Notes: a model not told the origin generated them from the sequence alone. Positions 24,452 to 55,928 are shown, counted from the stretch's first letter. The stretch is 64,000 nucleotides of DNA from Alphaproteobacteria bacterium (GCA_963667785.2 CAXXMU010000005.1:96001-160000), one strand, 5' to 3'. Numbers and translations are program-made.

Positions 24452-25537
24452 TCAGGAGTTCTGCCGTCGGAGGGATGCGTCTCGCCCGCCGGAAGCCCCG
24501 GCCATGCTGCCCGGCGGTCGACACGTGGAGCCGCGCACCTTGATCTCGCCGTGCAACCTGACCGAGGGGATCGGCGTTCCGTCCGTGAGGAAGTCGCAGA
24601 TCGCCTGCGCGCTCTCCTGGCCCATCGCGGCCACGGGCAGGCTGATGCAGGTCAGGCGCGGATGGCTGTGCTCGGACCAGGAGATGTGATCGAACCCCAT
24701 GACCGACATGTCGCGGGGCAGGAGGAGGCCGCTGCGCTGAAGCTCGAACATCGCGCCGAGCGCGATGAGATCGGTAACGCAAAGCAGCGCGGTCGGACGC
24801 CGGTCCAGCGCCAGGGCCTCTCTCGCAGCGGCGACGCCGCCTCTCACGCTGATCTCGGTCTCGATCTTCTGCAGCGAGCGCACGCCCTCGACCGATTCCG
24901 CGCCGCGAATCCTGAACCGGGCCCGGTCGTTCTGCGCCGTGGGCCCAGAGACGAGCGCGACATCCCTGTGGCCGAGGTCGAGCAGATGCCGCATGGCCTG
25001 GCGTCCGAGCGCGGTGTTGTCGTAGCCGATGGTCGGCAGCGGGGCGGAGGCCTCGTAGATCGAGGTTGCGACCACGGGCGCTCCGAACCGCTTGGCCATG
25101 CCGGTGAGCTCGGGCTCGTGATCCAGCCCGGTGACGATCAGCGCCCTCGCGCCCATCTCGAGCAGCGAGCGGGCGCGCTCGAGCTCCACGCGGCGGTCCA
25201 TGCCGGTCGTGGCGATGAGCAGGCAGTAGCCGTTGGCGTCCAGCCTGGCCTCCAGGGCTTCCAGAAACGCCGCGAAGATCGCGTGGTTGATGCTGGGGAT
25301 CACGGCGCCGACGGTGTTGGTGCCGCCTGCGTTGAGAGCACGCGCGAGAGGGTCGGGCGCGAATTCGAGGCGGGCGAAGACCCGCAGCACGTCCTCGCGA
25401 GTTGCCGGGGAGACCGACGGCGAGCCGTTCAGGACCCGCGATGCGGTGGCGATCGAGACCCCGGCCTCGCGCGCGACATCCCGCAGGGTGATCCGTCCCG
25501 AGGATTGCTTGCTCCGCAGTGGTCTGCGTTCGGGCAT
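24452..25537 (-). CDS. LacI family transcriptional regulator
   Basis: ITLRDVAREAGVSIATASRVLN HTH; MSVMGFD, LTCI motifs. Confidence 0.95.
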   Translation of the reverse strand: MPERRPLRSKQSSGRITLRDVAREAGVSIATASRVLNGSPSVSPATREDVLRVFARLEFAPDPLARALNAGGTNTVGAVIPSINHAIFAAFLEALEARLDANGYCLLIATTGMDRRVELERARSLLEMGARALIVTGLDHEPELTGMAKRFGAPVVATSIYEASAPLPTIGYDNTALGRQAMRHLLDLGHRDVALVSGPTAQNDRARFRIRGAESVEGVRSLQKIETEISVRGGVAAAREALALDRRPTALLCVTDLIALGAMFELQRSGLLLPRDMSVMGFDHISWSEHSHPRLTCISLPVAAMGQESAQAICDFLTDGTPIPSVRLHGEIKVRGSTCRPPGSMAGASGGRDASLRRQNS

Positions 25538-25897
25538 TCCGACTCCGGTGCGAGTTATGCCGCGGGCGCCATGCGCCCCTTTGCCGAGGGCACCCTGCGG
25601 GGGGCTGCACGGCCTAAGGCGCGACGAGCCGGGCCTCGCCTCCTGCGATCAGGACGCCCGGGACGACGCCGGGCCCGGCGGAGCCCCGCATGCACCCGCA
25701 GTGTATCCCTAGGCATCGAAATTCTGTCGTTCGGAGGCTGATCGGTCAAGCATTGGCGCACTGAGCGGATTTCCCGCCCCCGACACGGTCCACACGGCCC
25801 ACGCCCAGCGCAGGCACGCCCGCGTTAGCGAACGGGCGCGGGACATCGCGGGGCGCCCGTGCCCCTCTTCGCCGTGGAACCGTGCAACGGGCTTCCC

Positions 25898-25962
25898 TGT
25901 AACCGGTCACAAGTGCTACAGTTCGCATATGTAACCGGTACCATCAATTGTAACCGGTTGCA
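25898..25962. promoter_or_regulatory. Three LacI-type operators around an extended -10 promoter of tauA
   Basis: TGTAACCGGTCACA 25898-25911, TGTAACCGGTACCA 25930-25943, TGTAACCGGTTGCA 25949-25962; TGcTACAGT at 25914-25922. Confidence 0.8.
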
Positions 25963-26117
25963 TGGGTCGAAGGAACCGGTCCGCGTGCGCCCCGAATTGG
26001 GGCCCCGACGTGATGGCGAGATGTCGCTATGACCGCATCGGTAGACAATCCCGGACGCAGCGCGGAAACCCCAATCGCACAAATCGTGCACATTGCGCAT
26101 CGAAAGGAGTGCTCGAC

Positions 26118-27092
26118 ATGAAACGCACCGGCTTCATGGCGGTCGTCGCTGCGGGGGTGGCGATGCTGTTCGCTTCGTCGGCATCCGCCCTCGACAAGAT
26201 CACGGTGGCCTACTTCCTCGAATGGCCGACCGCGAACCAGGTTGCGCAACTCGAGAAGACCTATGACGAGGCGATGGGCGTCGAGGTGGAGTGGCGCGCC
26301 TTCGGCAACGGCAACGAGATGAGCCAGGCGATGGTCTCGGGCGACGTGCAGATCGCCTATTCCCAGGGGCTGGTTCCCTGGGTGGTCGCGGTCACCAACG
26401 GGCTCCCGCTCAAGCTCGTCGGCGTCGCGGTGAGCTACGCCGAGGCCGACAACTGCGTCGTCCACGCCGACACCGGCATCACGCAGGCGAACGCGGCCGA
26501 GCTGGAGGGCATGCAGATCGCGACCCCGATCGGCAACGTCACCCACTACAAGCTGCTGCGCACGCTGGATCATCTCGGCGTCGATGCGTCGAAGGTCGAC
26601 ATGGTGCAGATGAACGGCGCCGACGCGTCGGTCGCGCTCGCGCGCGGGGACGTGGCTGCGGCCTGCGCCTTCGGCGGCCCGCTCCAGCGGATGAAGGAGT
26701 ATGGCGACGAGCTGATGACCCCGGCAGAGCAGGAGGCGATCGGCATTCGCGTCTTCGACGTCGTCTCGGTGACAGAGAGCTTCGCCAACGAGCATCCCGA
26801 CCTGCTGAAGAAGTTCATGGCGGTGACCGACCAGGCGAACGCGGCCTACAACGCGGATTCGGCGCCGTTCGTGGAGACCATCTCCAAGGCCGCCGGCATG
26901 GACCTCGCCGCGACGGAAGACATGCTCGGCATGTTCTCCTTCCCCTCGGCGGCCGACCAGAAGTCGGAAGCGTGGATGGGCGGCACCGTGCAGGCCTTCA
27001 CCAAGGAAGTGGCGGACTTCTTCGTCCAGCAGGGCCAGCTCGACAGCGCTCTCGACAGCTACGACTTCGCGATCGACGACAGCTACCTGTAG
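26118..27092 (+). CDS. tauA: Taurine/sulfonate ABC transporter substrate-binding protein
   Basis: Signal peptide, ITVAYFLEWPT, IATPIGNVTHYKL; in operon with xsc; SD AAGGAG. Confidence 0.85.
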   Translation: MKRTGFMAVVAAGVAMLFASSASALDKITVAYFLEWPTANQVAQLEKTYDEAMGVEVEWRAFGNGNEMSQAMVSGDVQIAYSQGLVPWVVAVTNGLPLKLVGVAVSYAEADNCVVHADTGITQANAAELEGMQIATPIGNVTHYKLLRTLDHLGVDASKVDMVQMNGADASVALARGDVAAACAFGGPLQRMKEYGDELMTPAEQEAIGIRVFDVVSVTESFANEHPDLLKKFMAVTDQANAAYNADSAPFVETISKAAGMDLAATEDMLGMFSFPSAADQKSEAWMGGTVQAFTKEVADFFVQQGQLDSALDSYDFAIDDSYL

Positions 27093-27296
27093 GCACTGTC
27101 GCTCGCGGCCGGAAGGCCGAGACGGGGCCTGATCTCCCCGCCTCGCCGCATCCTTGAGGAGCGGCAGGGCGGGGAGCACCGGCCGCCGACACCCTGCCTT
27201 CGCGCACGGTGAGCGGCGGCGCGGCGCGCGTGTGGCGCGGGGCACTTGCCGCTGTTAGGGTCCGGACTGTGCCGGATCCCGGATGAGGAAGGCGCA

Positions 27297-28100
27297 TTGG
27301 ACGGGCTCGTCATCGACAATGTCTCGATGGTCTTCACCTTGCCGAACGGCGGCCAGGTCCATGCCCTCGAAGACGTCTCGCTGCACCTGAAGCCCGGCGA
27401 ACTGATGGCCGTGCTGGGCCCTTCCGGGTGCGGCAAGACCACGCTGCTCAACATCGTCGGCGGATTCCTGGCGCCCACAGCAGGCCAGGCGCTCCTCAAC
27501 GGCCATCAGGTGACGGGCCCGCACAAGGAGCGCGGCGTCGTGTTCCAGCAGGGTGCGCTGTTCGAATGGATGACGGTCGCCCAGAACGTGAGCTTCGGCC
27601 CCCGCATGTGCGGGGTGCCGCGCGCCGAGATCAAGCAGACGGTCCGGCGCCTGCTCGACACCGTGGCGCTGCGGGACTTCGCCGACAAGCCGGTCTACCA
27701 GCTCTCGGGCGGCATGCAGCAGCGCGTGGCGCTGGCGCGGTGCCTCGCGAACGATCCGGACGTGATCCTGATGGACGAGCCGCTCGGCGCGCTCGACGCG
27801 CTGACCCGCGAGAAGATGCAAGGGCTCGTGCTCAAGCTGTGGAAGGAGACCGGCAAGACCATCATCCTGATCACCCATTCCGTCGAGGAGGCCCTCTTCC
27901 TCGGCGAGCGCCTGGTGGTCATGGCGCCGCGCCCGGGGCGCATCCACAAGGAGTACGCCCTCCCCTTCGCCGAGCAGGGGGTCAAGGGGGACGCACGCTC
28001 GATCAAGGCCCAGCCCGACTTCATCGCCGCCCGCGAAGAGATCCTCTCCATGATCTGGGAGATGGAGGAGGAGATCATGAGCGGCGCGGACGTGGGCTGA
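27297..28100 (+). CDS. tauB: Taurine ABC transporter ATP-binding protein
   Basis: GPSGCGKTT, LSGGMQQR, MDEPLGALDALTRE; TTG start inferred. Confidence 0.88.
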   Translation: MDGLVIDNVSMVFTLPNGGQVHALEDVSLHLKPGELMAVLGPSGCGKTTLLNIVGGFLAPTAGQALLNGHQVTGPHKERGVVFQQGALFEWMTVAQNVSFGPRMCGVPRAEIKQTVRRLLDTVALRDFADKPVYQLSGGMQQRVALARCLANDPDVILMDEPLGALDALTREKMQGLVLKLWKETGKTIILITHSVEEALFLGERLVVMAPRPGRIHKEYALPFAEQGVKGDARSIKAQPDFIAAREEILSMIWEMEEEIMSGADVG

Positions 28101-28110
28101 CGGGCGGGAC

Positions 28111-29019
28111 ATGGCGAAGCGCAAGCAACCCCCGCGCTGGGGCGTCTGGCTCGGCATCGCGGACAACAGCTTCACCCGGCAGAAGACCGTCAAATTCGGC
28201 GACGCGTCCGCGGTGAACTCGGGCCGCCTGTGGTCGGTGCTCACCCTGATCATCCTGATCCTGGCGTGGTGGATCGCGACCATCGGCGGGATCATCGATC
28301 CCCTCTTCTGGCCGCCGCTGGAAGGCAGCCTCTATCCCTGGGACAACCCCAACCGGGCCAGGCCCGGCGTCGTCGACCGCTTCGTCAGCCTCTTCGTCGA
28401 CGGCTACCGCAACATCTCGCTCTGGGAGCATGTCGGCACCTCGGTCAAACGGGTGCTCCTCGGCGTGGTCATCGGCGCGCTGGTGGGCATCCCGCTTGGC
28501 TTCGCCATGGGCCTGAACTCGGTGGCGCGCGGGCTATTCGACCCGATCGTCGAGTTCATCCGCCCCATTCCGCCGCTCGCGCTCATCCCGCTGGTGATCC
28601 TGTGGCTGGGGATCGACGAGGTGGCCAAGATCTTCCTGCTCTTCCTGGCGGCGCTCTTCATCATGCTGATCGCCGCCCGCGCGGGCGTGAACTCGGTGCA
28701 GATCTCCAAGGTCCACGCGGCCTATTCGCTGGGCGCCTCCAAGTTCCAGGTGCTGCGCTACGTCATCCTGCCGAACGCGCTGCCGGAAATCTTCACGGGC
28801 CTGCGCACCTCCATGGGCGTCTGCTGGGGAACGCTGGTCGCCGCCGAGCTGGTGGCGGCGGACCAGGGTGTCGGCTCGATGATGATGATCGCCAAGAACT
28901 TCCTGCAGACCGACGTGGTGGTGATCGGGATCATCATCATCGGCGCGATCGGCTTCGCCATCGAGATCTTCATGCGCATGCTCGAGGCATGGCTGATCCC
29001 CTGGAAGGGGAAGGGGTGA
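28111..29019 (+). CDS. tauC: Taurine ABC transporter permease
   Basis: RPIPPLALIPL, AAYSLGAS, WGTLVAAELVAA, WKGKG end. Confidence 0.88.
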   Translation: MAKRKQPPRWGVWLGIADNSFTRQKTVKFGDASAVNSGRLWSVLTLIILILAWWIATIGGIIDPLFWPPLEGSLYPWDNPNRARPGVVDRFVSLFVDGYRNISLWEHVGTSVKRVLLGVVIGALVGIPLGFAMGLNSVARGLFDPIVEFIRPIPPLALIPLVILWLGIDEVAKIFLLFLAALFIMLIAARAGVNSVQISKVHAAYSLGASKFQVLRYVILPNALPEIFTGLRTSMGVCWGTLVAAELVAADQGVGSMMMIAKNFLQTDVVVIGIIIIGAIGFAIEIFMRMLEAWLIPWKGKG

Positions 29020-29092: not shown

Positions 29093-30859
29093 ATGAGAAT
29101 GACGACCGAAGAGGCCTTCGTGAAGGTCCTGCAGCGACACGGAATCGAGCACGTGTTCGGCATCATCGGCTCCGCCTTCATGCCGATATCGGACCTGTTC
29201 CCGAAGGCCGGGATTACCTTCTGGGACGTGGCGCACGAGAGCAACGCGGGCTTCATGTGCGACGGCTACACCCGCGCCAGCGGCAAGATCGCCATGTGCA
29301 TCGGCCAGAACGGCCCCGGCATCACCAACCTCGTGACCCCGGTGAAGACCGCCTACTGGAACCACACGCCGCTGCTGCTGGTGACGCCCCAGGCGGCCAA
29401 CAAGACCATCGGCCAGGGCGGCTTCCAGGAAGTGCCGCAGATGGCGCTGTTCGAGGAGATGGTCTGCTACCAGGAGGAGGTGCGCGATGCCTCCCGCATG
29501 GCCGAGGTCCTCAACCGGGTGATCGAGAATGCGGTGCGCCAGTCGGCGCCGGCGCAGATCAACGTGCCGCGCGATCTCTGGACCCAGGAGGTCGATATCG
29601 CGCTGCCGCCGATCGTGCACCTGGAGCGCGCCGCGGGCGGCGAGGAGTCGGTCGCGGAGGCCGCGCGGCTGCTCTCGGAAGCCCGCTTCCCGGTGATCCT
29701 CTCCGGCGGCGGCGTGGTGATCGGAGACGCGATCGACGAATGCCGGGCGCTCGCCGAGCGCCTCGACGCCCCGGTCTGCTCCGGCTACCAGCACAACGAC
29801 AGCTTCCCCGGCTCGCACCCGCTCGCCGCAGGCCCACTCGGCTACAACGGCTCCAAGGCGGCGATGGAGCTGATCGCGCAGGCCGACGTGGTGCTGGCGC
29901 TGGGCACGCGCCTCAACCCGTTCTCGACGCTGCCGGGCTACGGCATCGACTACTGGCCGAGGGACGCGGCGGTCATCCAGGTGGACATGAACCCGGACCG
30001 CATCGGCCTGACCAAGATGGTCACGGTCGGCATCTGCGGCGACGCGAAGAAGGTGGCGGGGCAGCTTCTCCAACAACTCTCCCGCAGCGCAGGCGATGCC
30101 GGCCGCGAAGAGCGCCGGGCCGCGATCCACCGCACCCGCTCCGCCTGGCTCCAGACCCTTGCCGGCATGGACCACGAGGACGACGATCCGGGCACCACCT
30201 GGAACGTGGACGCGCGGACGCGGGAGCCGGACCGGATGTCGGCACGGATGGCGTGGCGCGCGATCCAGGACGGCCTGCCGAAGGACGCCATCATCTCGTC
30301 CGACATCGGCAACAACTGCGCCATCGGCAACGCCTATCCGACCTTCGAGGAGGGGCGCAAGTACCTGGCGCCCGGCCTCTTCGGCCCCTGCGGCTACGGC
30401 TTTCCCGCCATCCTCGGGGCCAAGATCGGCTGCCCGGACGTGCCGGTCGTCGGTTTCGCCGGCGACGGCGCCTTCGGCATCTCCATGAACGAGATGACCT
30501 CCTGCGGGCGCGAGGGATGGCCCGCGATCACCATGGTGGTCTTCCGGAACTATCAGTGGGGCGCGGAGAAGCGGAACTCGATCCTCTGGTACGACAACAA
30601 CTTCGTCGGCACCGAGCTCAACCCCGACCTGAGCTACGCCAGGGTCGCGGACGCCTGCGGGCTGAAGGGCGTGGCGGTGAGCACCATGGAGGAGCTGACG
30701 ACGGCACTCCGCGAGTCGTGCGCGGCGCAGGCAGACGGCGTCACCACCTTCATCGAGGTCATCCTCAATCAGGAGCTGGGCGAGCCCTTCCGCCGCGATG
30801 CCATGAAGAAGCCCAACGTCGTGGCCGGCATCGAGGGCGGCGACATGCACCCCCAGTAG
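29093..30859 (+). CDS. xsc: Sulfoacetaldehyde acetyltransferase (ThDP-dependent)
   Basis: MTTEEAFVKVL..HGI..FGIIGSAFM, QNGPGITN, NYQWGAEKRN, ELGEPFRRDAM characteristic of Xsc. Confidence 0.96.
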   Translation: MRMTTEEAFVKVLQRHGIEHVFGIIGSAFMPISDLFPKAGITFWDVAHESNAGFMCDGYTRASGKIAMCIGQNGPGITNLVTPVKTAYWNHTPLLLVTPQAANKTIGQGGFQEVPQMALFEEMVCYQEEVRDASRMAEVLNRVIENAVRQSAPAQINVPRDLWTQEVDIALPPIVHLERAAGGEESVAEAARLLSEARFPVILSGGGVVIGDAIDECRALAERLDAPVCSGYQHNDSFPGSHPLAAGPLGYNGSKAAMELIAQADVVLALGTRLNPFSTLPGYGIDYWPRDAAVIQVDMNPDRIGLTKMVTVGICGDAKKVAGQLLQQLSRSAGDAGREERRAAIHRTRSAWLQTLAGMDHEDDDPGTTWNVDARTREPDRMSARMAWRAIQDGLPKDAIISSDIGNNCAIGNAYPTFEEGRKYLAPGLFGPCGYGFPAILGAKIGCPDVPVVGFAGDGAFGISMNEMTSCGREGWPAITMVVFRNYQWGAEKRNSILWYDNNFVGTELNPDLSYARVADACGLKGVAVSTMEELTTALRESCAAQADGVTTFIEVILNQELGEPFRRDAMKKPNVVAGIEGGDMHPQ

Positions 30860-31833
30860 TGGACATCGTCGAGCGCCTCGTCGCGCAGGCGAAACAGCGT
30901 CGGCGCACCGTCGTCCTGCCGGAGGGCGACGATGCGAGGATCGTCGAAGCGGCGAGGCGCCTGCACGAGGGCGGCATCGCCCGCCCCATCCTGATCGGCG
31001 AGCACACGGCGCTGGAAGACGCCGCCGCATCGGCCGGCGTATCGCTCGACGCCATCGAGAGCGTGGCGCCGGCCGAGAGCGGGGCACTCGATGCCTACGC
31101 GACGCTCTACCTGGAAGGCCGACCGAAGGCGCGCGACGGGGTGGCGCGGCGCCTGCTGGCGAAGCCGCTCTTCTACGCGGCAATGGCGGTGAAGGCGGGC
31201 GATGCCGATGCGCTGGTGGCCGGCGCGACCCAGCCGACGGCGCGCATCATCGAGGCCGGGCTGATGTCGGTGGGGCTCGCGGACGGCATCGCAACGCCGT
31301 CCAGCTTCTTCATCATGGTGCCCCGCGCAGACGGCGAGCCCCTCGTCTTCGCCGACTGCGCGGTCAACGTCGAGCCGGACGCGGATGCGCTCGCGGACAT
31401 CGCCATCGCGTCCGCCGGGAGCGCCAAGCGCCTGCTCGGGACGCCCGCACGGGTGGCGATGCTCTCGTTCTCCACCCATGGCAGCGCCAGGCACGCGCGG
31501 GTCGAGAGGGTCCGCCGCGCCGTGGAGATCGTGCGCGAACGGGCGCCGGACATCGCGATCGACGGCGAGCTCCAGGCGGATGCGGCGCTCGTGCCGCGCG
31601 TGGCTGCGCTCAAGACCACCGGCCAGAACGACGTGGCGGGCAGGGCCAACGTCCTCGTCTTCCCGGATCTCGACTCCGGCAATATCGGCTACAAGCTCTG
31701 CGAGCATCTGGGCCAGATGCGTGCGATCGGCCCCTTCCTGCAGGGCTTCGCGCGGCCGGTGTGCGACCTCTCGCGCGGGGCGACGGTGGACGACATCGTG
31801 GCCGCCGCGGCGATCACCGCGGCGATGGCGTGA
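30859..31833 (+). CDS. pta: Phosphate acetyltransferase
   Basis: VVLPEGDD, FADCAVN, AMLSFST, DGELQADAA, FPDLDSGNIGYK; GTG overlaps xsc stop. Confidence 0.93.
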   Translation: MDIVERLVAQAKQRRRTVVLPEGDDARIVEAARRLHEGGIARPILIGEHTALEDAAASAGVSLDAIESVAPAESGALDAYATLYLEGRPKARDGVARRLLAKPLFYAAMAVKAGDADALVAGATQPTARIIEAGLMSVGLADGIATPSSFFIMVPRADGEPLVFADCAVNVEPDADALADIAIASAGSAKRLLGTPARVAMLSFSTHGSARHARVERVRRAVEIVRERAPDIAIDGELQADAALVPRVAALKTTGQNDVAGRANVLVFPDLDSGNIGYKLCEHLGQMRAIGPFLQGFARPVCDLSRGATVDDIVAAAAITAAMA

Positions 31834-33038: not shown

Positions 33039-33908
33039 TCAGCCGAGCCTCGCCTGAAGCGCGCGCCCGACCTCGGAAGGCGTGTCCAGCACCTCGACGC
33101 CCGCCGCCTCGAGCGCCGTGCGCTTCGATGCGTAGGTGCCCCTGTCGCCCATCACGATCGCGCCGGCATGGCCCATCTTCTTGCCTGGCGGCGAGGCGCT
33201 GCCCGCGATGAAGGCCACCACGGGCTTGGCCATCTCTCGTGCGTAGGCGGCCGCGTCCTCCTCCATCGTCCCGCCGATCTCGCCGACCACCACGACCGCA
33301 TCGGTGCGCGCGTCGGCATCCAGCGCCTCCAGCGCGTCGCACGTGGTCGTTCCGACGATCGGGTCGCCGCCGATGCCGATGAAGGCCGACTGCCCGAAGC
33401 CGGCCTGCACCAGGTTGAGACAGACCAGGGTGCCGAGACTTCCGCTGCGGGAAATCACCCCCACCCGGCCGGGCCGGAAGACGTCGGCCTCGAACGCCGG
33501 CATGAAACCGACGAAGCACGCGCCCGGCGTCACCAGGCCGGCGGTATTCGGGCCGACGACGGCGGCGCCGTTTGCGCGGGCCATCGCCAGCATCTCCATC
33601 ACGTCCTGTACCGGAATGTGCTCGGTGAGCACGACGAGGCGGGCGCAGCCGGCCTCGATCGCGTCCTGCGCCGCCGCCTTCACCCCGAGCGGCGGAATGA
33701 ACAGGACGGAGAGGTCGAAGCCCGTCTCGCGCATTGCCTCGCCTGCGGTCGCGAAGACCGGCACGCCGCAATGCCGGGTGCCGGCCTTCTTCGGGTTCAC
33801 GCCCGCCACGACGCAGGTGCCGTAGGCCTGCATGCGCTCGGTCCAGTAGGTGCCCTGCCGCCCGGTGATCCCCTGGACGAGCACCCGGTCTCCGCCGCGC
33901 ACGATCAT
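33039..33908 (-). CDS. ADP-forming acyl-CoA ligase alpha subunit (SucD-like; probable sulfoacetate-CoA ligase)
   Basis: VQGITG, GPNTAG, SRSG, GIGGDP, GEIGG, MGHAGA; cotranscribed with sauS. Confidence 0.85.
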
Positions 33909-35050
33909 GGGGGACCGCCCGCATCGCGGGCCGCGGCGACGGCGGCGACGATCGCCTCATCCATCGTCCCGTAGGGTGTCACGCCGAGCCGTTCGCGGAG
34001 CATCTCCCGCGCTTGCGCCGAGCCCGTGCCGCGCACGCTGAAGAAGACCGGCATGGCGGGCGTGAACGCCTCCCAGGCATCGAGCACGCCCGCGGTCATC
34101 ACGTCGGTCCGCGCGAAGGCGCCGCAGAAGTTCACCACGAGGCTCCGCACCCTGGGATTGGCGAGAACGATCTCCAGCGCCGGCGCTCCCCTGGTGTAGG
34201 CGTCGCCGCCGATTTCCAGGAAATTCGCCGCCCGCCCCCCGTGGTGCGCGATCACGTCCATGGTGGTCATGGTGAGCCCGGCGCCGTTGGCGAGCACGCC
34301 GATGTCCCCGTCGAGCTCGATGTATCTCAGCCCCAGCGCCTGCGCGCGCGCCTCCAGCGCGGTGAGCGGTTCGGGGCTCCCTCCGCGCGCGAGCTCCTCC
34401 CGGCGCCGGATCCCGGAATCGTCGAGGGTGAACTTGCAATCGAGCGCGACCAGGCGCCCGTCATCGAGCCGGGCGAGGGGATTGACCTCGAGAAGCTCGG
34501 CGTCGTTGTCGCGGTAGGCGCGATAGAGCGCCATGAGGGTCTCGGCGACCGGCCCTTCGTCGGCGTCGAGGCCGAGGCCCTCCAGCATCGCGCGTGCGGT
34601 CTCGAGGTCCAACCCGTGCAGGATGTCCACGCTTGCCCGCCGCAGCCGCTCCGGCATCGACGCCGCGATCTCCTCCACGTCCATGCCGCCCTCGGAGGAG
34701 AAAATCACCAGCGGCGCCTGCGACGCCGCGTCGCCCAGGATCGCCGCGTAGTACTCCGCCGCGACCGGCGCGCGCTCCTCGACCAGCACCGAGGCGACGC
34801 GATGCCCCGCGATCTCCATGCCGAGGATCGCGCCGGCCGCTCCGCGCGCGGCTGCGGGATCGTCCGCGACACGGATGCCGCCGGCCTTGCCGCGCTTGCC
34901 TTGCGGAACCTGGGCCTTGACCACCACCGGTGCCGCGAGTTCCGCCGCGACGGCTTCCGCCTCGGCGGCGCTCCGCGCGAGCCTGCCGCGCGGGATCGCG
35001 ATGCCTGCCGCCCGCAGCAGCGGCTTCGCCGCATGCTCCTCGAAGTCCAC
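33905..35050 (-). CDS. ADP-forming acyl-CoA ligase beta subunit (SucC-like; probable sulfoacetate-CoA ligase)
   Basis: VVKAQV..GKRGKAGG, EVNPL, NGAGLTMTTMD, NFLEIGG; diverged from housekeeping SucC. Confidence 0.85.
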   Translation of the reverse strand: MDFEEHAAKPLLRAAGIAIPRGRLARSAAEAEAVAAELAAPVVVKAQVPQGKRGKAGGIRVADDPAAARGAAGAILGMEIAGHRVASVLVEERAPVAAEYYAAILGDAASQAPLVIFSSEGGMDVEEIAASMPERLRRASVDILHGLDLETARAMLEGLGLDADEGPVAETLMALYRAYRDNDAELLEVNPLARLDDGRLVALDCKFTLDDSGIRRREELARGGSPEPLTALEARAQALGLRYIELDGDIGVLANGAGLTMTTMDVIAHHGGRAANFLEIGGDAYTRGAPALEIVLANPRVRSLVVNFCGAFARTDVMTAGVLDAWEAFTPAMPVFFSVRGTGSAQAREMLRERLGVTPYGTMDEAIVAAVAAARDAGGPP

Positions 35051-35089
35051 GATGTCCGGTTCCCTGTCGCGCGACGGGCGCCGCGTCGC

Positions 35090-36517
35090 CTACGTCCCGT
35101 ACTTGTCCCAGTAGTCGCCGAACAGCGCCTCCTCGCTGGGCTTGTCTTCGGGAATCGGGACGGCGAGATGGGTGATGTTGAGGAAGTGCCGGTAGTTGAG
35201 GTTCTCGCTGATGCTGTTGCCCTGCCAGGTCCCGCACCCCATGGAGAGGGTGAAGTTGAGGCCGCTGTCGAAGCCGCCTCCGTTGCCGAAGGTGTGCGCC
35301 ATGTTCACGAGGACCCGCGCGGTATCGAGCTCCTCGGCGAGACGGCGGGCATGCGCTGTCTCCTCGGTGTGAATGCCGACGGAGTGGCCCCGGCCCTTGA
35401 CGCCCATGATCGCGCGCACCTTGCCCACGGCATCGTCGAAGCTCCTGGCACGATAGACGGTGAGCACCAGAGCGAGCTTCTCGTCGGAGAACGGATGCTC
35501 AGGCCCGATCCCGGTCTCCTCGACCATGACGAAGCGGGCGCCGGGCGCCGGGCCTTCGAGACCGCACTCGGCCGCGAAGACCCCAAAATCCTTCGCGATG
35601 ACTCGCCGGTTGAGCCCTCCGTCGACCCAGAGGGTACGCCGGATCGCCTCCTTCTCCGCCGCGTCCGCCAGGTAGCCGCCGGCGCGCTGCAGCGCGGCGA
35701 GCGCGGCGTCGTACACGTCGTCGAGAATGATCAGCGCGTTCTCCGAGGAGCACGAGGTCGCGTTGTCGAAGCACTTGGAGGCGGCGATCTTCGCCGCCGC
35801 CTCGTCGAGCTTCGCGCTGGAATCGACGATGACCGGGACGTTGCCGGCACCCACCCCGATCGCGGGCGTGCCGCTGCGGTAGGCGGCCCGCACGTTGCTC
35901 TGCGAGCCGGTGACGACCACCAGGTCGCAGGCCGCCATCAGCGCCTGAGTGATCGCCTTGTCCACGGGCGCAGGCAGCACCTGCACCAGGTCCGCAGGCG
36001 CGCCGATCTTCTCCAGCTCCGCCCGCATCAGCGCCACGGCCCTCGTGGTGGTCGCGAGGCCGGCGGGAGAGGGCGCGATGACGATCGCGTTGCGCCCCTT
36101 GAGCGCCATCATCGTCTTGTTCACGGGTGTCGCCGCGGGGTTGGTCGACGGCGTCACCGCGCCGACCACACCGACCGGCTTCGCGTACTTCACCAGCCCG
36201 AGCGCCGGCAGCTCCTCGACGATGCCGACGCTCTTCACCCGCATCAGGTCGCGCAGGGTGCCGAAGGTCTTGCGCCGGTTCTTGACGACCTTGTCGGCCG
36301 CGTTGCCGAGGCCGGTGTCGTCCACCGCCATCCTGGCGAGCGCCTCGGCGTGTTCGGGCTTGTAGAGCGACCAGGCGATCGCGGTCACCGCCTCGTCCAC
36401 CCGCGCCTGATCGGAATCGGCGAAGGCCGCCATGGCCGTGCGGGCGCGGCGGACCAGCGCGGCGACGATCGCAACCGGGTCGCGCTCGAAGACTTGGGCC
36501 TTGGCAGGCTGGCTCAT
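35090..36517 (-). CDS. sauS: CoA-acylating aldehyde dehydrogenase, probable sulfoacetaldehyde dehydrogenase
   Basis: PSTNPAATP, GVGAGN, FDNATSCSSEN, GGFDSGLNFTLSMGCGTW; adjacent to xsc cluster; SD GAGGAG. Confidence 0.8.
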   Translation of the reverse strand: MSQPAKAQVFERDPVAIVAALVRRARTAMAAFADSDQARVDEAVTAIAWSLYKPEHAEALARMAVDDTGLGNAADKVVKNRRKTFGTLRDLMRVKSVGIVEELPALGLVKYAKPVGVVGAVTPSTNPAATPVNKTMMALKGRNAIVIAPSPAGLATTTRAVALMRAELEKIGAPADLVQVLPAPVDKAITQALMAACDLVVVTGSQSNVRAAYRSGTPAIGVGAGNVPVIVDSSAKLDEAAAKIAASKCFDNATSCSSENALIILDDVYDAALAALQRAGGYLADAAEKEAIRRTLWVDGGLNRRVIAKDFGVFAAECGLEGPAPGARFVMVEETGIGPEHPFSDEKLALVLTVYRARSFDDAVGKVRAIMGVKGRGHSVGIHTEETAHARRLAEELDTARVLVNMAHTFGNGGGFDSGLNFTLSMGCGTWQGNSISENLNYRHFLNITHLAVPIPEDKPSEEALFGDYWDKYGT

Positions 36518-36849
36518 CGTCCGTGTCGCTCCTCGGGCTGCGCGCCGGCGTGCCCGATGCGGCCGTCGCGCCGGTGGCGGAGCTTGGTGCAGGCTCCGGC
36601 CTCGAATCAAGCATCTTACGCAGCGCGCGGGACGCGTGCAGCAGGGGAAAAGCCGGGACACGATGGATCGGGCGCAAGCGCTGCCGCTCCGCATCTCCTT
36701 CTGGCCTTGCCGCTTCGAATCGACCGTGCGCTCCGCGAGGGTGCCCGGTATCGTCGCGGGCGCCGTCAGCCGCCTCGACCTGGCCTCGCGGCGGCCCCGG
36801 ACACTGTTCACCTGAATGCACCGAACGGACGCCGGCCACCCCCGCAGCG

Positions 36850-37542
36850 ATGAGCGCCCGCCATGCCATCTACTTCGCGCCCGACGCGGGCACGCCGCTC
36901 GCGCGCTTCGGCGCCGCCTGGCTCGGGCGCGATGCCGAATCGGGCGAGCGGCTGGCGCGGCCGGCAGTCGAGGGCTTCGGCGACGAGCGGCTGGAGCGCA
37001 TCACAGAGAAGCCGCGCGGCTACGGTTTTCACGCGACCCTGGCGCCGCCCTTCCGGCTCTCTCAGGCGTGCACGCGCGCGATGCTCGACGAGGCGCTCGC
37101 CGCCTTCGCCGCCACGCGCAGGCCCTTTCACACGCCGCCGCTGACGCTTGCGGTGCTCGACGACTTCCTCGCCCTGATGCTCTCCGACGAGAGCGAGGCC
37201 ATGCAGGCGCTGGAGGACGACATCATCCACGCCTTCGAGCGCTTTCGCGCGCCGCCCGCTCCGGCCGAGCACATTCGCCGGCAGGCGGTGGCGCACACGC
37301 CGCGCCAGGAGGAATTGCTCCGGCAATGGGGCTATCCCTTCGTGCTGGACGAGTTCCGCTTCCACATGACGCTCACGTGCGAGCTCGACCAGCCCGAGCG
37401 GGGCGCGCTCCGACGGGCGCTGGCACGGCTCACCGCTCCCCTTTGCGCCTCGCCGCTCGCGGTCGCCGGCATCGCGCTGTTCGAGCAGGCGGAGCGCGGC
37501 GGCCCGTTCATGCTCACCCGCCGCTACCCGTTCCCGGCGTGA
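36850..37542 (+). CDS. DUF1045 family 2H phosphoesterase-like protein
   Basis: AIYFAP, YGFHATL, WGYPFV..EFRFHMTLT (two HxT motifs). Confidence 0.85.
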   Translation: MSARHAIYFAPDAGTPLARFGAAWLGRDAESGERLARPAVEGFGDERLERITEKPRGYGFHATLAPPFRLSQACTRAMLDEALAAFAATRRPFHTPPLTLAVLDDFLALMLSDESEAMQALEDDIIHAFERFRAPPAPAEHIRRQAVAHTPRQEELLRQWGYPFVLDEFRFHMTLTCELDQPERGALRRALARLTAPLCASPLAVAGIALFEQAERGGPFMLTRRYPFPA

Positions 37543-37654
37543 GCGGGGAGGCAGTCGACGACGACGCCCCGGCAGCCTCGCCCTGCGGCGCTGGCGCCGG
37601 GGGCCGGCATCGGCCATCATCCCGCCGCCTGACCGCCGCACACGGGGAGCGCCG

Positions 37655-38050
37655 ATGATCACGAAGGGAATCAAGCAGCTCGTGGCCGAGGCCGAAGCCG
37701 AGATCGAGACCATCACGGCCGAGGACGCCATCGCGCTGATGGACGACGAGAGCGTCGAGCTCGTCGACATCCGCGACATCAGGGAGCTCTGGCGCGAAGG
37801 CGCCGTCCCCGGCGCGCGCCACGTGCCGCGCGGCATGATCGAGTTCTGGATCGACCCCGAGAGCCCCTATCACAAGCCCTTCTTCGCCAGCGGCAGGAAG
37901 TTCGTGTTCTTCTGCGCCGGGGGATTACGCTCGGCGCTGGCGACGCAGGCGGCGCAGAACATGGGGCTCGGCCCCGTCGCCCATATCGCCGGCGGCTTCG
38001 GCGCCTGGAAGGAGGCCGGCGGCCCGACCGAGGAGAAGCCGCGTCCCTAA
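37655..38050 (+). CDS. Rhodanese-like domain protein
   Basis: VDIRD, HVPRGMIEF, FCAGGLRS, GGFGAW. Confidence 0.9.
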   Translation: MITKGIKQLVAEAEAEIETITAEDAIALMDDESVELVDIRDIRELWREGAVPGARHVPRGMIEFWIDPESPYHKPFFASGRKFVFFCAGGLRSALATQAAQNMGLGPVAHIAGGFGAWKEAGGPTEEKPRP

Positions 38051-49240: not shown

Positions 49241-50227
<987 letters not shown>

Positions 50228-50236
50228 TCCCGCGGT

Positions 50237-51227: not shown

Positions 51228-52487
51228 TCACGGGGTGCGGTCGTAATAGGCCCGGAGGATGGCGAGCACGCCGTCTCGGCTGTACTCGGGCGGAATCGCC
51301 TCGGCGTTCGCGAACATCGCGCGCAGCCGAGTGCCCGAGATGCGGAGCTTTCCGCCGTCGCCCCGGCGGCAGGGCCGGCCGGGGGCGGCGCCCGTCGCCA
51401 CCGCCGCCACCGCCCGATGGCGCTCCTCCTCGCCTGCACGCTCCTCGCCGCCGTCGGCCGCAAAGCAGACGTTCCCCGTCGCCATGCCCGCGCAGTCGAA
51501 GCAATGGAAGGTGTCGTCGACCTTCAGCGGCCGGATGGCGAGGCTGTCCGCTCCGATCTCGTCGAAGATGCGCTGTGCGTCGTAGGGCCCGTAATAGTCG
51601 CCGAGCCCGGCATGGTCGCGCCCCACCACCAGGTGCGAGCAGCCGAAGTTCTGGCGGAAGAGGGCGTGCAGCAGCGCCTCCCGCGGGCCGGCGTAGCGCA
51701 TCTCGATGGGATAGCCGGCCTGGATCACCCGCCCTTCCGGGAAGTGGTTGGCGACCAGCCAGTCGATGGCGCGCACCCGGACCTCGGCCGGGATGTCGCC
51801 TGCCTTGAGAGCGCCGAGGACCTGGTGAATCAGCACCCCGTCGCACACCGCGAGGCCGACCTTGGCGAGAAACTCGTGGCTGCGGTGCATGGGGTTGCGG
51901 GTCTGGAAGGCGGCGACCGTCGACCAGCCCTTCCCGGCGAAGAGCGCCCGGGTTTCGGCGGGGCGCAGGTAGAGCCCCCGGTAGGTCGCGGGAAAGTGAC
52001 CCTCGGAGAGGACCGAGACCGGGCCCGCCAGGTTGACCGCGCCCTGCGCCATGACCTTGGCGACGCCGGGATGGGCCTCGTCGGTGGTGCGGTAGACCTC
52101 GCGGCACTCGAGAGCCTTGTCGATGGCGTAGGCCTCGCTGACCGCGAGGATGCCGAGGATCTCTCCGCCCGCGTCCGTCAACGCCACCTCGTCGCCGGCG
52201 GCGACGGCGGCGTCCTCATCGCAGGAGAGGGTGACCGGCAGCGGCCAGAAGAGCCCGCTCTCCAGCCGCATCTCGAGGCACGCGCCGCGCCAGTCGGCCG
52301 CGCCCATGAAGCCCGCGAGCGGCGTGTAGGCGCCCATGGCGAGCATGAAGAGGTCCGAGACCTCGCGCGTCGACAGCGGCAGCCTCTTCAGGGTGCGCGC
52401 TTTCTTCAGCGCCTCCTCACGCTGGTCCGCCGGCAGCAACAGGGGCCGCAAGGTGGTGCCGCCGTGTGGGGCGATCAGGGTCGGCAC
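51228..52487 (-). CDS. sat: Sulfate adenylyltransferase (ATP sulfurylase)
   Basis: AFQTRNPMHRSHE, MRYAGPREA, VGRDHAG, ISGT; GTG start. Confidence 0.96.
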   Translation of the reverse strand: MPTLIAPHGGTTLRPLLLPADQREEALKKARTLKRLPLSTREVSDLFMLAMGAYTPLAGFMGAADWRGACLEMRLESGLFWPLPVTLSCDEDAAVAAGDEVALTDAGGEILGILAVSEAYAIDKALECREVYRTTDEAHPGVAKVMAQGAVNLAGPVSVLSEGHFPATYRGLYLRPAETRALFAGKGWSTVAAFQTRNPMHRSHEFLAKVGLAVCDGVLIHQVLGALKAGDIPAEVRVRAIDWLVANHFPEGRVIQAGYPIEMRYAGPREALLHALFRQNFGCSHLVVGRDHAGLGDYYGPYDAQRIFDEIGADSLAIRPLKVDDTFHCFDCAGMATGNVCFAADGGEERAGEEERHRAVAAVATGAAPGRPCRRGDGGKLRISGTRLRAMFANAEAIPPEYSRDGVLAILRAYYDRTP

Positions 52488-52546
52488 GGACCGTCACCGT
52501 CGCTGGAGAGCGTCGCGCGGACCATGACCGTGGCGCGAAGGCCCGG

Positions 52547-52697
52547 CTAGAGTGTATCCGTCTTTGACGGATACACGACAGGCCGCGACTGCGGCCCGCC
52601 GCTAATGCGGCGTGCCCGCGCAGGCGCCGGCTGCAAGCCGGCTGCCGTGAGCGATAAAGAGGCTGGAGCGTTTCCGTGTAGAGCGGACACGCTCTAG
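52547..52697 (+). mobile_element. 151-bp MITE-like structured repeat, CTAG-bounded, between aprA and sat
   Basis: Second full copy of 20781-20931; right-hand CTAG contains the aprA stop codon. Confidence 0.8.
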
Positions 52698-54538
52698 TCC
52701 ACGATGTGGTAGACGGGGGCCTTCTCCATAGCCCATTCCCCGGACTCGCGATCGTAGCGGGAGAGGGTGAAGCAGTGCCATTCGGCGTCGTCCAGCTTCG
52801 GATGATCGCCCCGATAGTAGTATCCGGGCCAGCGCGTCTCCGTCCTGAACATCGTGTGATGGGTCACGGACTCCGAGGCGAGCACCCGGTGGTGAAGCTC
52901 CCACGCCCGCTGAAGCTGGTGCAGGTCTTCGGCCCCCAGATGGTCGAGGTCTTCCCTTAGCATGGCCAGCAACTCCAGCCCGCGCGTGAGCATGGGTTCG
53001 TTCGTCGTGTAGGCGGCGCTGATGCCGCCCACATACTCGTCCATGATCTTCTCGAGGCGCTGGAGGCCGTGAAGCGGCAGCATGTAGCTCGGCGAGACCG
53101 TGCCCGCGACGATCTCGTTGCGGCCCACCCTGTAGGTCTCGAGCGGCTGGAAGACGGTCTTCCTGAGGTCCTCGTACTCCTGCTCGCTGACCTGGGGCTG
53201 CTCGCCCTTGAGGTCGATGACGTAGTTGACCGCCGCCTTGCCGGCGATCCGGCCTTCCGTGAACGAGCCCGACGAGAACTTGTGGGCGGAGCCGCCGATG
53301 GTGTCGCCGGCGCCGAACAGCCCGTCGACGGTCATCATCCGGTTGTAGCCCCACTGGTAGTCCGCCGGCGCGCAGTCCTCCGGGCCGCTCGCCCAGGCGC
53401 CCGAGCAGGTGGCGTGCGAGCCCATGACGTAGGGCTCGGACGTGGTCAGCTCCGGGTTGGTGTGCTTGGGATCGATGTTCTGGGAGGCCCAGACGACCGC
53501 CTGCCCGATGGTCATGCCCAGGAAATTCTCCCAGCCGACCTGCTCCTTGTGCGGGTCGGCGAAGGCCTCGGTCGTCACCATGCGGATGGGCCCCCGGCCG
53601 GCCTTGATCTCCTCCAGCAGCGCGTGGTTGCGCAGGCAGGTCGGCACCGGATGCATGTCGATGTAGTCACCGACCAGCGCCTTGGTATGGTCGTACCACC
53701 TGGACTCGTACTCCTCGCCGTAGGCGTTCTCGGTGTAGGTCTTGAGGTGGAGGAAGTAGGCGCCGACCGGGCCGTAGCCGTCCTTGAAGCGGGTCAGGAC
53801 GATCCGGTTCTCCATCTGGGTCATCTTGGCGCCGACGAGGATCGGCAGCGCGTAGGCCGACGCGCTGCTCCAGGGCGCATACCAGGTGCGCCCCATCCCC
53901 TCGCCCACCGCACGGGGCTTGAAGATGTGCGACGCGCCGCCGGCCGCAACGATGACGGCCCTGGCGCGGAAGACGTGGAAATCCCCGGTGCGGACGTTGA
54001 AGCCGACGGCGCCGGCGACGCGGCCCGGCTTCGTCCGGTCCGTCAGCAGGTGGGTCACCATGATCCGGTTGTAGACTTCGGCCGCGGCCTTGCGGGCGGC
54101 CTCGGCGACGATCGGCTTGTAGCTCTCGCCGTGGATCATGATCTGCCACTTGCCTTCGCGCTGATAGCGCCCGGTCTCCGGGTCCCGCATGATGGGAAGG
54201 CCCCACTCCTCGAACTTGTGCACGGTGGAGTCGACGTGGCGGGCGATGTCGTAGCCCAGATCCTCCCGCACCAGGCCCATGAGGTCGTTCCGGGCATAGC
54301 GGACATGGTCCTCGGGCTGGTTCTCGTCCCACTGCATGCCCATGTAGCAGTTGATCGCGTAGAGGCCCTGGGCTACGGCGCCGCTGCGCTCGATGTTCGC
54401 CTTCTCGACGCAAACCACCTTCAGGTCGCGCCCCCAGTAGCCGGCCTCGTAGGTCGCCCCGCAGCCGGCCATGCCGCCGCCGACCACCAGGATGTCCGCA
54501 TCCACGAAGACCGTCTTCCGACGCGAGAAGAGACCCAC
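52694..54538 (-). CDS. aprA: Adenylylsulfate reductase alpha subunit (AprM-associated, oxidative type)
   Basis: RSGAVAQGLYAIN, WQIMIHGESYK, RFKDGYGPVGA, HKFSSGS; GTG start overlapping aprB stop inferred. Confidence 0.95.
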   Translation of the reverse strand: MGLFSRRKTVFVDADILVVGGGMAGCGATYEAGYWGRDLKVVCVEKANIERSGAVAQGLYAINCYMGMQWDENQPEDHVRYARNDLMGLVREDLGYDIARHVDSTVHKFEEWGLPIMRDPETGRYQREGKWQIMIHGESYKPIVAEAARKAAAEVYNRIMVTHLLTDRTKPGRVAGAVGFNVRTGDFHVFRARAVIVAAGGASHIFKPRAVGEGMGRTWYAPWSSASAYALPILVGAKMTQMENRIVLTRFKDGYGPVGAYFLHLKTYTENAYGEEYESRWYDHTKALVGDYIDMHPVPTCLRNHALLEEIKAGRGPIRMVTTEAFADPHKEQVGWENFLGMTIGQAVVWASQNIDPKHTNPELTTSEPYVMGSHATCSGAWASGPEDCAPADYQWGYNRMMTVDGLFGAGDTIGGSAHKFSSGSFTEGRIAGKAAVNYVIDLKGEQPQVSEQEYEDLRKTVFQPLETYRVGRNEIVAGTVSPSYMLPLHGLQRLEKIMDEYVGGISAAYTTNEPMLTRGLELLAMLREDLDHLGAEDLHQLQRAWELHHRVLASESVTHHTMFRTETRWPGYYYRGDHPKLDDAEWHCFTLSRYDRESGEWAMEKAPVYHIVD

Positions 54539-54999
54539 TAGAGGAGGCCCTCCCTGAAACGATCCGGCGTCAGCGCGGGCAGCGCGTCGACGTGGAGCGC
54601 GTCCGGCTCGTGCGCGAGCTCCTGGGACTTCATCGCCTCCGCGCTTGGGGCCTCGTAGTCGGCAGGCGGCTTGATCGATCCCCAGGGCGTGGTGCGGATC
54701 GGGGAGACAAAGTCCTTCTCCCTGCCGTCCCGGAACTTGATCTTCCAGGAGATGGTGCCCTTCGCCTCCTCTCTCAGCGTCCGGACGCTGTGGCCCAGCG
54801 GAGCGAAGTCGGCGTAGCCGCGGCAGTCGATGGCGTTCTGCGGACACGCCTTCACGCAGGAGTAGCACTCCCAGCACATGTTGGGCTCGATGTTGTAGGC
54901 ACGCCGGTAGGTCTTATCGATGTGCATGATGTCGGAGGGGCAGATATCGACGCAGTAGCCGCAGCCGTCGCAGCGGGTCATGTAGACGAAGGTCGGCAT
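54538..54999 (-). CDS. aprB: Adenylylsulfate reductase beta subunit
   Basis: MPTFVYMTRCDGCGYCVDICPSDIM, CWECYSCVKACP. Confidence 0.97.
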   Translation of the reverse strand: MPTFVYMTRCDGCGYCVDICPSDIMHIDKTYRRAYNIEPNMCWECYSCVKACPQNAIDCRGYADFAPLGHSVRTLREEAKGTISWKIKFRDGREKDFVSPIRTTPWGSIKPPADYEAPSAEAMKSQELAHEPDALHVDALPALTPDRFREGLL

Positions 55000-55042
55000 G
55001 GGGGTCGGTTAGCTCCTCTTTCCGAGAGCGATGGTGGGCCGA

Positions 55043-55828
55043 TCAGTAATGACTTGGCCTCTCGCGGGCGCTGCCGAAGGTTTCGGGCTCGTCGGCCGGC
55101 GCCGGCAGGTTGCTCCTGGAGCCGGCCGCTTCGGACACCCGCTTCTCGAAGGCCGCCGCGGGCTTGAAGAACATGTGCGAGAACTTGGACCACGGAACGG
55201 AGCCGAACAGCACCGTCGTGGCGACGAGGTAGAGGCCGAGGAGCACGTTCGTCCCGGCGCTCTCGATCGACTGCAGGCCGGCCCAGATCAGCCCGAGCGT
55301 CGCGCTGGCGAGAAGCGAGAGGATGAACAGGTCCGCGCGCATGATGCGGAACGGCGTGTGGCCCTCCGCCGCGACGTCGACCCGAATGAAGAACCAGAAC
55401 CAGTAGCCGCCGACCATGACCAGCAGGGCGCCTGCGACCCAGAGCTGGGGCAGCACGGCGGGCGTCGGCGTGGCGGCCGTCGGGTAGCAGAACACCATGA
55501 CGACGGTGGTCGCGACGTGGAGCAGGAAACCGTACATCGTCAGCAGGTGGGCGACCCGGCGACGGCCGAGGCCGAATTCGGCCGAGGTCAGGACCTCCAC
55601 CAACGCGGTCCGGACCGCGAGCCCCGCGATCGTCCCGCCGGCGACCCGCCGCGTCCCCCTGGCCTGCGCGTTGCGCCAGCTTGCGAAGAAGTAGGCGGCG
55701 CTCCTCTTGTGCCAGACGTCGAACAGGGTGCCGCCCACGACCAGGGCGATCATGACGATGACGTAGGTCTGTATGGCGGTGGGCGAGATGGAATCCGAAA
55801 GCGCGGCGAAGGGATTACTCGTGAACAC
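55043..55828 (-). CDS. aprM: Adenylylsulfate reductase membrane anchor
   Basis: Multi-TM, RRRVAHLLTMYGF, WFWFFIRVDV, WSKFSHMFFKP; directly upstream of aprB. Confidence 0.9.
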   Translation of the reverse strand: MFTSNPFAALSDSISPTAIQTYVIVMIALVVGGTLFDVWHKRSAAYFFASWRNAQARGTRRVAGGTIAGLAVRTALVEVLTSAEFGLGRRRVAHLLTMYGFLLHVATTVVMVFCYPTAATPTPAVLPQLWVAGALLVMVGGYWFWFFIRVDVAAEGHTPFRIMRADLFILSLLASATLGLIWAGLQSIESAGTNVLLGLYLVATTVLFGSVPWSKFSHMFFKPAAAFEKRVSEAAGSRSNLPAPADEPETFGSARERPSHY

Positions 55829-55914
55829 GCAATTCTCTCCGATCTCGGCCCGTTCCGCTCAGCGCCCGGAGCGACAGTATCGATCTGCCGGCGGGAAGGA
55901 TAACATTTTCTGGA

Positions 55915-55928
55915 TGTAACCGGTTACT
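55915..55928. promoter_or_regulatory. LacI-type operator upstream of aprM, same motif as tauA operators
   Basis: TGTAACCGGTTACT with perfect 12-bp palindrome GTAACCGGTTAC, 87 bp upstream of aprM start. Confidence 0.75.

Follow-up and report, generated by a model that had tools for sequence, protein, structure and literature searches.

A candidate LacI-type operator shared by a sulfonate cleavage operon and an adenylyl-sulfate reductase operon in an alphaproteobacterium

A 64,000-nucleotide stretch of DNA from an Alphaproteobacteria bacterium (GCA_963667785.2, CAXXMU010000005.1:96001-160000), here called the window, carries two operons that appear to be joined by a shared regulatory site. The stretch belongs to the chromosome: rpoB and rpoC occupy its left end, and its G+C content is about 70%. 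One operon encodes a sulfonate ABC transporter, sulfoacetaldehyde acetyltransferase (Xsc), which releases sulfite, and phosphate acetyltransferase (Pta), and it is divergent from a gene for a LacI-family regulator. The other comprises aprM, aprB and aprA, for adenylyl-sulfate (APS) reductase and its predicted membrane anchor, and the ATP sulfurylase gene sat lies beyond it. A 14-bp even palindrome with a central CG, TGTAACCGGTTACA, stands three times beside the lacI gene and once at aprM. Together the results lead us to regard as probable that a single LacI repressor, released by an inducer, controls both the sulfonate uptake and cleavage operon and aprMBA.

The window contains four copies of TGTAACCGGTnnnn. 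Three of them (O1, O2 and O3), spaced 32 and 19 bp apart, lie inside the divergent spacer between lacI and the tauA-like gene and the fourth lies upstream of aprM, each at the coordinate reported by the first-pass annotation of this DNA (Table 1). Allowing up to three mismatches to TGTAACCGGTTACA, four matches were observed in the window where 0.22 would be expected, and none of 100 shuffled windows reached four. The exact 10-mer TGTAACCGGT is common to all four sites and occurs four times in the window. A symmetrised position weight matrix (PWM) built from the four window sites scores them at 21.2-24.5 bits, against 10.5 bits for the next-best position in the 64 kb; the earlier statement that no other intergenic copy exists thus holds for the window as a whole, intergenic or otherwise. 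The generic LacI pattern TGNAANCGNTTNCA, allowed one mismatch, returned the same four sites and nothing further. A weak, half-conserved fourth copy in the spacer, aGgAACCGGTccgc, was spotted by eye at 25970-25983, its centre 21 bp downstream of that of O3. The core AACCGGT is intact, but there are six mismatches overall and the copy falls below every threshold used.

Conservation of the apr site was followed in 80 aprM loci from other species, obtained by a genome scan with AprM and all belonging to metagenome-assembled genomes (AprM identity 62-82%). The footprint covers these loci with 10-kb flanks, and as GTDB representatives they stand for separate species. Perfect copies of TGTAACCGGTTACA were found upstream of aprM in five of the 80 loci: L002, where the copy stands at -208, and L004, L005, L006 and L029, where it stands at -97 to -99. 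When the plasmid locus L001, described below, is added to the 80, 74 of 81 loci have no match at up to two mismatches. Gene order was inspected in 15 loci, and a MauG-like gene upstream of aprM, as in the window, was present in exactly the five that carry the operator. The footprinting suggested as a check by the first-pass annotation thus found the perfect palindrome in five of five syntenic relatives. In the five collinear spacers (those of the window, L004, L005, L006 and L029), 13 of 14 columns of the site are unvarying, compared with 52 of 102 elsewhere, and outside the site the window spacer is 62-66% identical to those of its relatives. The motif is also not frequent in related DNA: in the 80 loci, which amount to 1,083,167 bases, only the five sites score 20 bits or more with the PWM, and the next best reaches 17.1 bits. 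One could argue, from its being a single site with one mismatch in the window, that the apr copy arose by chance or has no function. We consider this explanation highly improbable, given that the palindrome is kept perfect in every syntenic species amid diverging flanks, that the 1.08 Mb hold no background match at 20 bits or more, and that the species compared are distinct and their spacers well separated from that of the window.

The promoter region of aprMBA offers a further comparison. In close relatives that have no operator (L003, L007, L009 and L046; AprM 78-81% identical), it reads TTGACA, 21 nt, TATC(G/T/C)(T/C). The extended -10 string TGtTATCCT of the window is equivalent to the second of these boxes. 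In the operator-bearing clade, the left half-site coincides exactly with the TTGACA position of these relatives, reading TTGTAA, CTGTAA or AAGTAA, and its distance to T(T)A(T/C)CCT is the same 21 nt. Because the left half-site occupies the TTGACA position, a bound protein would cover the upstream promoter box of aprMBA. The same degraded box could instead mean that the promoter needs a bound factor, with the LacI protein binding at both promoters and activating aprMBA in place of the overwritten -35 box. We think activation very unlikely, as the site is centred near -31, a classical position for occlusion, and in L002 it stands 112 bp further upstream. The orthologous operator position of L002 has decayed to TGCATCCGATTGCG, and the perfect palindrome lies upstream of it (2963-2976 and about 3075-3088) in a spacer of 250 nt, compared with 113-116 nt in the others; this arrangement is best read as operator site turnover.

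Table 1. Genes and predicted regulatory features of the window; positions count from its first base, and bit scores of protein models are followed by the model's cut-off.
Feature	Position	Strand	Evidence or remark
LacI-family regulator gene	24452-25537	-	361 aa, complete; PF00356 and Peripla_BP
Operator O1	25898-25911	none	TGTAACCGGTCACA; PWM 23.5 bits; just upstream of putative -10
Putative extended -10 of transporter-xsc-pta operon	25914-25922	+	TGcTACAGT; sequence resemblance; between O1 and O2
Operator O2	25930-25943	none	TGTAACCGGTACCA; PWM 21.2 bits; approximately at predicted transcription start
Operator O3	25949-25962	none	TGTAACCGGTTGCA; PWM 23.5 bits; early leader
TauA-like sulfonate ABC substrate-binding protein	26118-27092	+	TIGR01729, 151.8 bits (304)
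TauB-like ABC ATPase	27246-28100	+	NF008421, 296.9 bits (357)
TauC-like ABC permease	28111-29019	+	NF007545, 232.9 bits (342)
xsc, sulfoacetaldehyde acetyltransferase	29093-30859	+	NF005713, 1017 bits (620); TIGR03457, 959 bits (676)
pta, phosphate acetyltransferase	30859-31833	+	NF007233, 344 bits (310), scored on translation of 30871-31833
Sulfoacetate-type module	33039-36517	-	convergent with pta; sauS, succinyl-CoA-ligase-like beta/alpha pair, type II citrate synthase
sauS, acylating sulfoacetaldehyde dehydrogenase	35090-36517	-	767 bits (600)
sat, ATP sulfurylase	51228-52487	-	NF003166, 454.7 bits (387)
aprA	52694-54505	-	TIGR02061, 965 bits (641.75); likely start GTG at 54505, N-terminus MDADILVVGGG
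aprB	54538-54999	-	TIGR02060, 196.4 bits (135.65)
aprM, predicted APS reductase membrane anchor	55043-55828	-	directly upstream of aprB and aprA
Putative extended -10 of aprMBA	55897-55905	-	TGtTATCCT; 12 nt downstream of apr operator
apr operator	55915-55928	none	TGTAACCGGTTACT; PWM 24.5 bits; 87-100 nt before aprM GTG, over upstream promoter box

The candidate regulator has an N-terminal helix-turn-helix (PF00356, 58.9 bits against a cut-off of 27, residues 17-62) and an effector domain resembling periplasmic binding proteins (Peripla_BP_1, PF00532, 87.5 bits; Peripla_BP_3, PF13377, 84.4 bits). Its closest solved structures are those of CcpA (E 7e-43). All 17 matches to named NCBIfam equivalogs, among them RbsR, GntR-Pae, CytR, CcpA, PurR and GalR/S, are below cut-off, the highest being RbsR (176.5 bits against 382), and the protein is therefore placed in an unnamed subfamily. 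The clade of its orthologues is narrow, with identities of 51-91% and a next step down at 41%, and the recognition helix region RDVAREAGVS.ATASRVLN is unvarying across five of them.

We predict that TGTAACCGGTTACA is the operator of this LacI protein because three copies stand in the spacer beside its gene, because the palindrome has a central CG, because it resembles the operator of PtxS and because paralogues have sister palindromes. The first-pass annotation took LacI operators to be palindromes with a central CG, in agreement with a survey in which 1173 of 1303 LacI-family regulators had even palindromes of this kind (PMC4052901). PtxS of Pseudomonas binds TGAAACCGGTTTCA, responds to 2-ketogluconate and occludes promoters at several operons (PMC5902321). 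Its operator differs from TGTAACCGGTTACA by one base per half-site, a likeness of the operators and not a comparison of the proteins, and both its effector and its regulon of sugar-acid genes are different from those of the window system.

Searches of a plasmid collection with tblastn found no match to AprM and no locus orthologous to lacI; the LacI matches were paralogues of up to 44% identity. At L001 (Paracoccus seriniphilus plasmid NZ_CP067130.1, 44% identity), the recognition helix is nearly the same as that of the window LacI in the aligned helix-turn-helix, and the gene's own divergent spacer contains TGTAACTAGTTACA and TGAAACCAGTTACA (8874-8908). At L082 (Rhodobacteraceae plasmid CP081100.1, 38% identity), the corresponding spacer contains TGTAAGCGCTTACA and TGCAAGCGCTTACA (5904-5940). 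The operators of these Rhodobacterales plasmid paralogues seem not to have been described before.

Such paralogues, with identities of 38-44% and paired palindromes of the very similar form TGTAA....TTACA, make cross-specificity plausible. A different protein, for instance a LacI-family paralogue with a similar half-site preference, might thus bind the apr site, and the two operons would then answer different signals. We judge this unlikely. The apr site has the exact CCGG core and the 10-mer of all three tau-side sites, whereas the paralogue cores are CTAG, CCAG and GCGC. Furthermore, neither the window nor any syntenic locus has a regulator gene adjoining apr, apart from a GntR/FCD gene inside an inserted cassette, and LacI orthologues occur on contigs with AprM, as judged by an indirect match.

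Co-occurrence on a contig was found for LacI and AprM in at least five cases by this indirect match, one of them operator-bearing: the contig of LacI member P0306 has 4,170,122 bases, as does the operator-bearing L006 contig, and among the members listed further matches were found at 814,701, 5,621,980, 4,781,976 and 5,457,807 bases. The co-occurring members are 87-90% (LacI) and 82-87% (AprM) identical to the window proteins. For LacI and the TauA-like protein, one such match was found among the members listed (164,240 bases), too few to claim conserved adjacency. Close homologues of the TauA-like protein and of AprM, at least 120 of each at 59% identity or more, far outnumber the LacI clade. 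Because that clade is narrow and these homologues are numerous, the pattern agrees with a lineage-specific regulator having been added to two older operons. It would be a case of regulator replacement, in which a LacI-type protein was superimposed on widespread operons.

A broader role for the LacI protein has also to be weighed. It might govern carbon or sulfur metabolism more widely, as CcpA, PckR and GapR do, with the two operons among many targets and no special coupling between them. Our view covers 64 kb of this genome and the 10-kb flanks of the relatives, and global LacI-family regulators have been described in Alphaproteobacteria (PMC4052901). No site was found near the citrate synthase, sdh, mdh or sugar-kinase genes of the window, however, and the related DNA contained no further strong match. 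The lacI gene adjoins one of its target operons, as is typical of a local regulator, and its clade is narrow. A larger regulon is therefore a minor possibility in our assessment.

The identity of the sulfonate is less secure than the presence of the operon. The first-pass annotation named LacI, xsc, pta, aprB, aprA and sat, and these calls are upheld by domain scores or curated cut-offs. It also described the first operon as a taurine system. Taurine models are the best match for each of the three transporter proteins, yet all three score below the equivalog cut-offs. The closest solved structure to the TauA-like protein is E. coli TauA (96.5 bits), and its close homologues carry the JGI label 'taurine transport system substrate-binding protein'. 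No tpa or tauXY was found among the scanned open reading frames (ORFs) of the window, although these genes could lie elsewhere in the genome. A class III aminotransferase gene upstream of apr (57466-58881) was considered as Tpa and ruled out, its closest solved relative being dialkylglycine decarboxylase (269 bits, against 155 bits for taurine:2-oxoglutarate aminotransferase). Since the transporter is sub-cut-off, the scanned ORFs include no tpa or tauXY and a sauS module adjoins the operon, the taurine label is unproven and is better softened.

The adjoining module is of the sulfoacetate type and would supply sulfoacetaldehyde to Xsc despite having no LacI-type operator. As a member of the regulon it was ruled out on that ground. 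On its far side, at 36523-38050 (+), lie a DUF1045 (2H-phosphoesterase-like) ORF and a rhodanese-domain ORF, followed by an EamA transporter and a luciferase-like monooxygenase. Within the transporter-xsc-pta operon, the GTG start of pta shares one base with the xsc stop codon, and a ribosome-binding site, GAAAGGAG, precedes the ATG of the tauA-like gene. The 197-nt leader of that gene folds no better than shuffled sequences (z -1.76; 12 of 200 as good), and no RNA element is claimed for it on that account. Rfam gave no match at gathering score in the window and none in 25500-26200 at E values up to 1, and the 580-bp spacer between lacI and the tauA-like gene contains no convincing small ORF.

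On the apr side, AprM has weak similarity to QmoC and TcuB and no Pfam match. It was called from its position, from highly conserved homologues beside aprBA in the inspected loci and from some source names; very many homologues exist at 66-98% identity, some of them named adenylyl-sulfate reductase by NCBI. The aprM leader (55832-55880, -) contains a block, ATCGATA(C/T)nGTC ... GCGTTnAACGGAACAGGC, that is kept even in operator-free relatives (L002-L007, L029 and L046 were compared). A second regulatory site is one possible role for it and an RNA element another, and Rfam had no match to it. The upstream regions of aprM in betaproteobacterial loci (for example L020, L028, L035, L039, L057, L076 and L079) have a different conserved element, of the TTTTTTCTATGGnnGCATAnCC or CTCTATAAGCGCATAGCGAA type, which suggests that apr operons are governed by clade-specific regulators.

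The first-pass annotation had included sat in the regulon. The part of that claim concerning aprMBA stood, its site being conserved; the part concerning sat is less secure. In the window, sat lies behind a spacer of 206 bp (52488-52693) with several hairpins, among them a perfect 11-bp stem at 52552-52576 that could be a processing site, an attenuation site or a terminator without a T run. In three relatives about 4.4 kb separate aprA from sat (L006, 13127-17513; L002, 6304-10745; L005, 4855-9319), and for this reason the aprMBA-sat operon of the window is not a conserved arrangement. The L006 cassette, the only one scanned, has its recognisable genes mostly on the opposite strand (phosphoenolpyruvate-mutase-like, pantoate-hydroxymethyltransferase-like and fatty-acid-hydroxylase-like genes and a GntR/FCD regulator), while a DUF6166 ORF has the orientation of apr. 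In L002, L005 and L006 alike, sat is preceded by a short ORF of about 60 codons. Both the co-transcription of sat with aprA and its membership of the regulon are therefore doubtful.

Several points weigh against control of both promoters by one repressor. The apr site of the window has one mismatch to the palindrome, and the footprint amounts to about three lineages in addition to L002, as L004 and L006 (spacers 96% identical) and L005 and L029 (91%) are close pairs. The site of L002 at -208 does not overlap the promoter. A gap of 21 nt between the two apr promoter boxes is unusual for sigma-70. The extended -10 strings that the first-pass annotation proposed are present at both promoters, but a consensus promoter scan called neither TGcTACAGT nor TGtTATCCT, because neither has a -35 hexamer. 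The sauS/CoA-ligase operon, which would feed into the same chemistry, has no PWM match and no matching palindrome in 36440-36900. Sharing of contigs was judged indirectly, from equal numbers of bases, among 81 of 289 LacI and 106 of 327 AprM members. Finally, a paralogue of the same specificity may exist elsewhere in the genome.

With these reservations, we favour a model in which the LacI protein acts as a local repressor with TGTAACCGGTTACA as its operator. In the absence of inducer, it would sit on the three operators around the transporter-xsc-pta promoter, at about -24, +8 and +27 from the predicted start, and on the single operator over the -35-like box of the aprMBA promoter, so that RNA polymerase would be blocked at both. 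A C2 sulfonate or a product of one (taurine, sulfoacetate, isethionate or sulfoacetaldehyde) is the probable inducer; by binding the effector domain it would free both operons together. The shared intermediate sulfoacetaldehyde, or sulfite, may play this part instead of any single substrate. The output of sulfite by Xsc would then be in step with AprMBA and, with Sat, sulfite would be converted by way of APS to sulfate. AprM-type anchors are associated with sulfur oxidisers, and from this anchor and the link to Xsc we infer that Apr and Sat run in the oxidative direction. Thus the earlier proposal that one LacI repressor co-induces both operons is retained for its core, on the conservation and rarity of the apr site and the co-occurrence of LacI with AprM, and is softened for the taurine label and for sat. 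A more specific version, in which a lineage-specific LacI repressor overwrote the -35 box of aprMBA in an uncultured Rhodospirillales-like lineage such that APS reductase is made only during organosulfonate cleavage, is put forward tentatively, as a possibility somewhat short of even chances.

Taurine genes are usually under the control of TauR, a regulator of the GntR/MocR family, as the first-pass annotation had noted, and the reconstructed TauR regulons include sulfite exporters (PMC5320631). In Alpha- and Betaproteobacteria these regulons cover tauABC, xsc, pta, tauE and tauZ, with bisC-dmsC-hybA in some Rhodobacterales (PMC5320631). Like TauR, the window LacI would be a local regulator whose targets include xsc, pta and a sulfonate transporter as well as genes for handling sulfite. 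In contrast, TauR is a MocR activator that recognises direct repeats (CTGGACYTAA), while the window has a LacI-type protein and a 14-bp palindrome, and the sulfite-handling target is an exporter or a molybdoenzyme for TauR and APS reductase here. No MocR-type gene turned up among the scanned ORFs of the window, in which no search was aimed at the TauR motif.

LacI-family regulators beside sulfonate genes are not unique to the window. In Ruegeria pomeroyi, HpsR (SPO0590) stands beside genes for the uptake and catabolism of 2,3-dihydroxypropane-1-sulfonate (DHPS) (PMC4334477). A comparable context is seen at L082, where a TRAP transporter, hisD-like, short-chain dehydrogenase/reductase and alcohol dehydrogenase genes are neighbours of the regulator and xsc is nearby; from this context we infer an HpsR-like regulator in an hps-like DHPS cluster. 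This HpsR-like regulator is not an orthologue of the window LacI (38% identity, against a clade limit of about 51%), and it differs from it in the type of transporter and in the operator core. We know of no link between HpsR and apr. The lac repressor of E. coli uses three operators, O1, O2 and O3, around one promoter and is released by a small-molecule inducer. The window differs in having its three sites within 65 bp and a fourth at a second operon 30 kb away.

The metabolic logic itself has precedents. A route from taurine through Xsc to sulfite and on through AprBA and Sat, with gain of ATP, was proposed for SAR11 and for 'Ca. Taurinisymbion ianthellae' (PMC10356861). In the symbiont the membrane link was given as QmoAB with qmoC replaced, and sulfate excretion from taurine was not shown for SAR11 in culture (PMC10356861). 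These proposals were drawn from gene content and proteomics and assigned no regulator; the window differs from the symbiont in its predicted AprM anchor and in the shared operator that joins the two operons. A regulatory link between a LacI-type protein, xsc or sulfonate genes and apr was not found in searches of the open-access literature, in keeping with the first-pass annotation, which had not seen one described; the survey of LacI-family regulons uses neither 'taurine' nor 'sulfo' in its main text (PMC4052901). Thus the metabolic coupling of Xsc with Apr and Sat and the existence of LacI-type regulators of sulfonate genes are already known, and the regulatory link is what appears to be new. 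That a lineage-specific LacI-type regulator stands in TauR's place, with APS reductase as a co-regulated sulfite sink, is in our view a well-supported prediction.

In practical terms the gain is a modest one, a candidate pair of repressor and operator responsive to sulfonates, and the system offers a simple handle for tests, with one repressor, two promoters and few candidate inducers. The role of APS reductase in aerobic heterotrophs has so far been argued from gene content. A shared and conserved operator is evidence of another kind, that sulfonate cleavage and Apr form a single unit for the cell. If the proposal is true, an apr operon of the oxidative type would for the first time have been assigned a transcription factor, this LacI protein. 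Genome data would then lend independent weight to the view that, in heterotrophic alphaproteobacteria, Apr serves as a dedicated, energy-conserving end module for the catabolism of organosulfonates and is not a part of lithotrophy.

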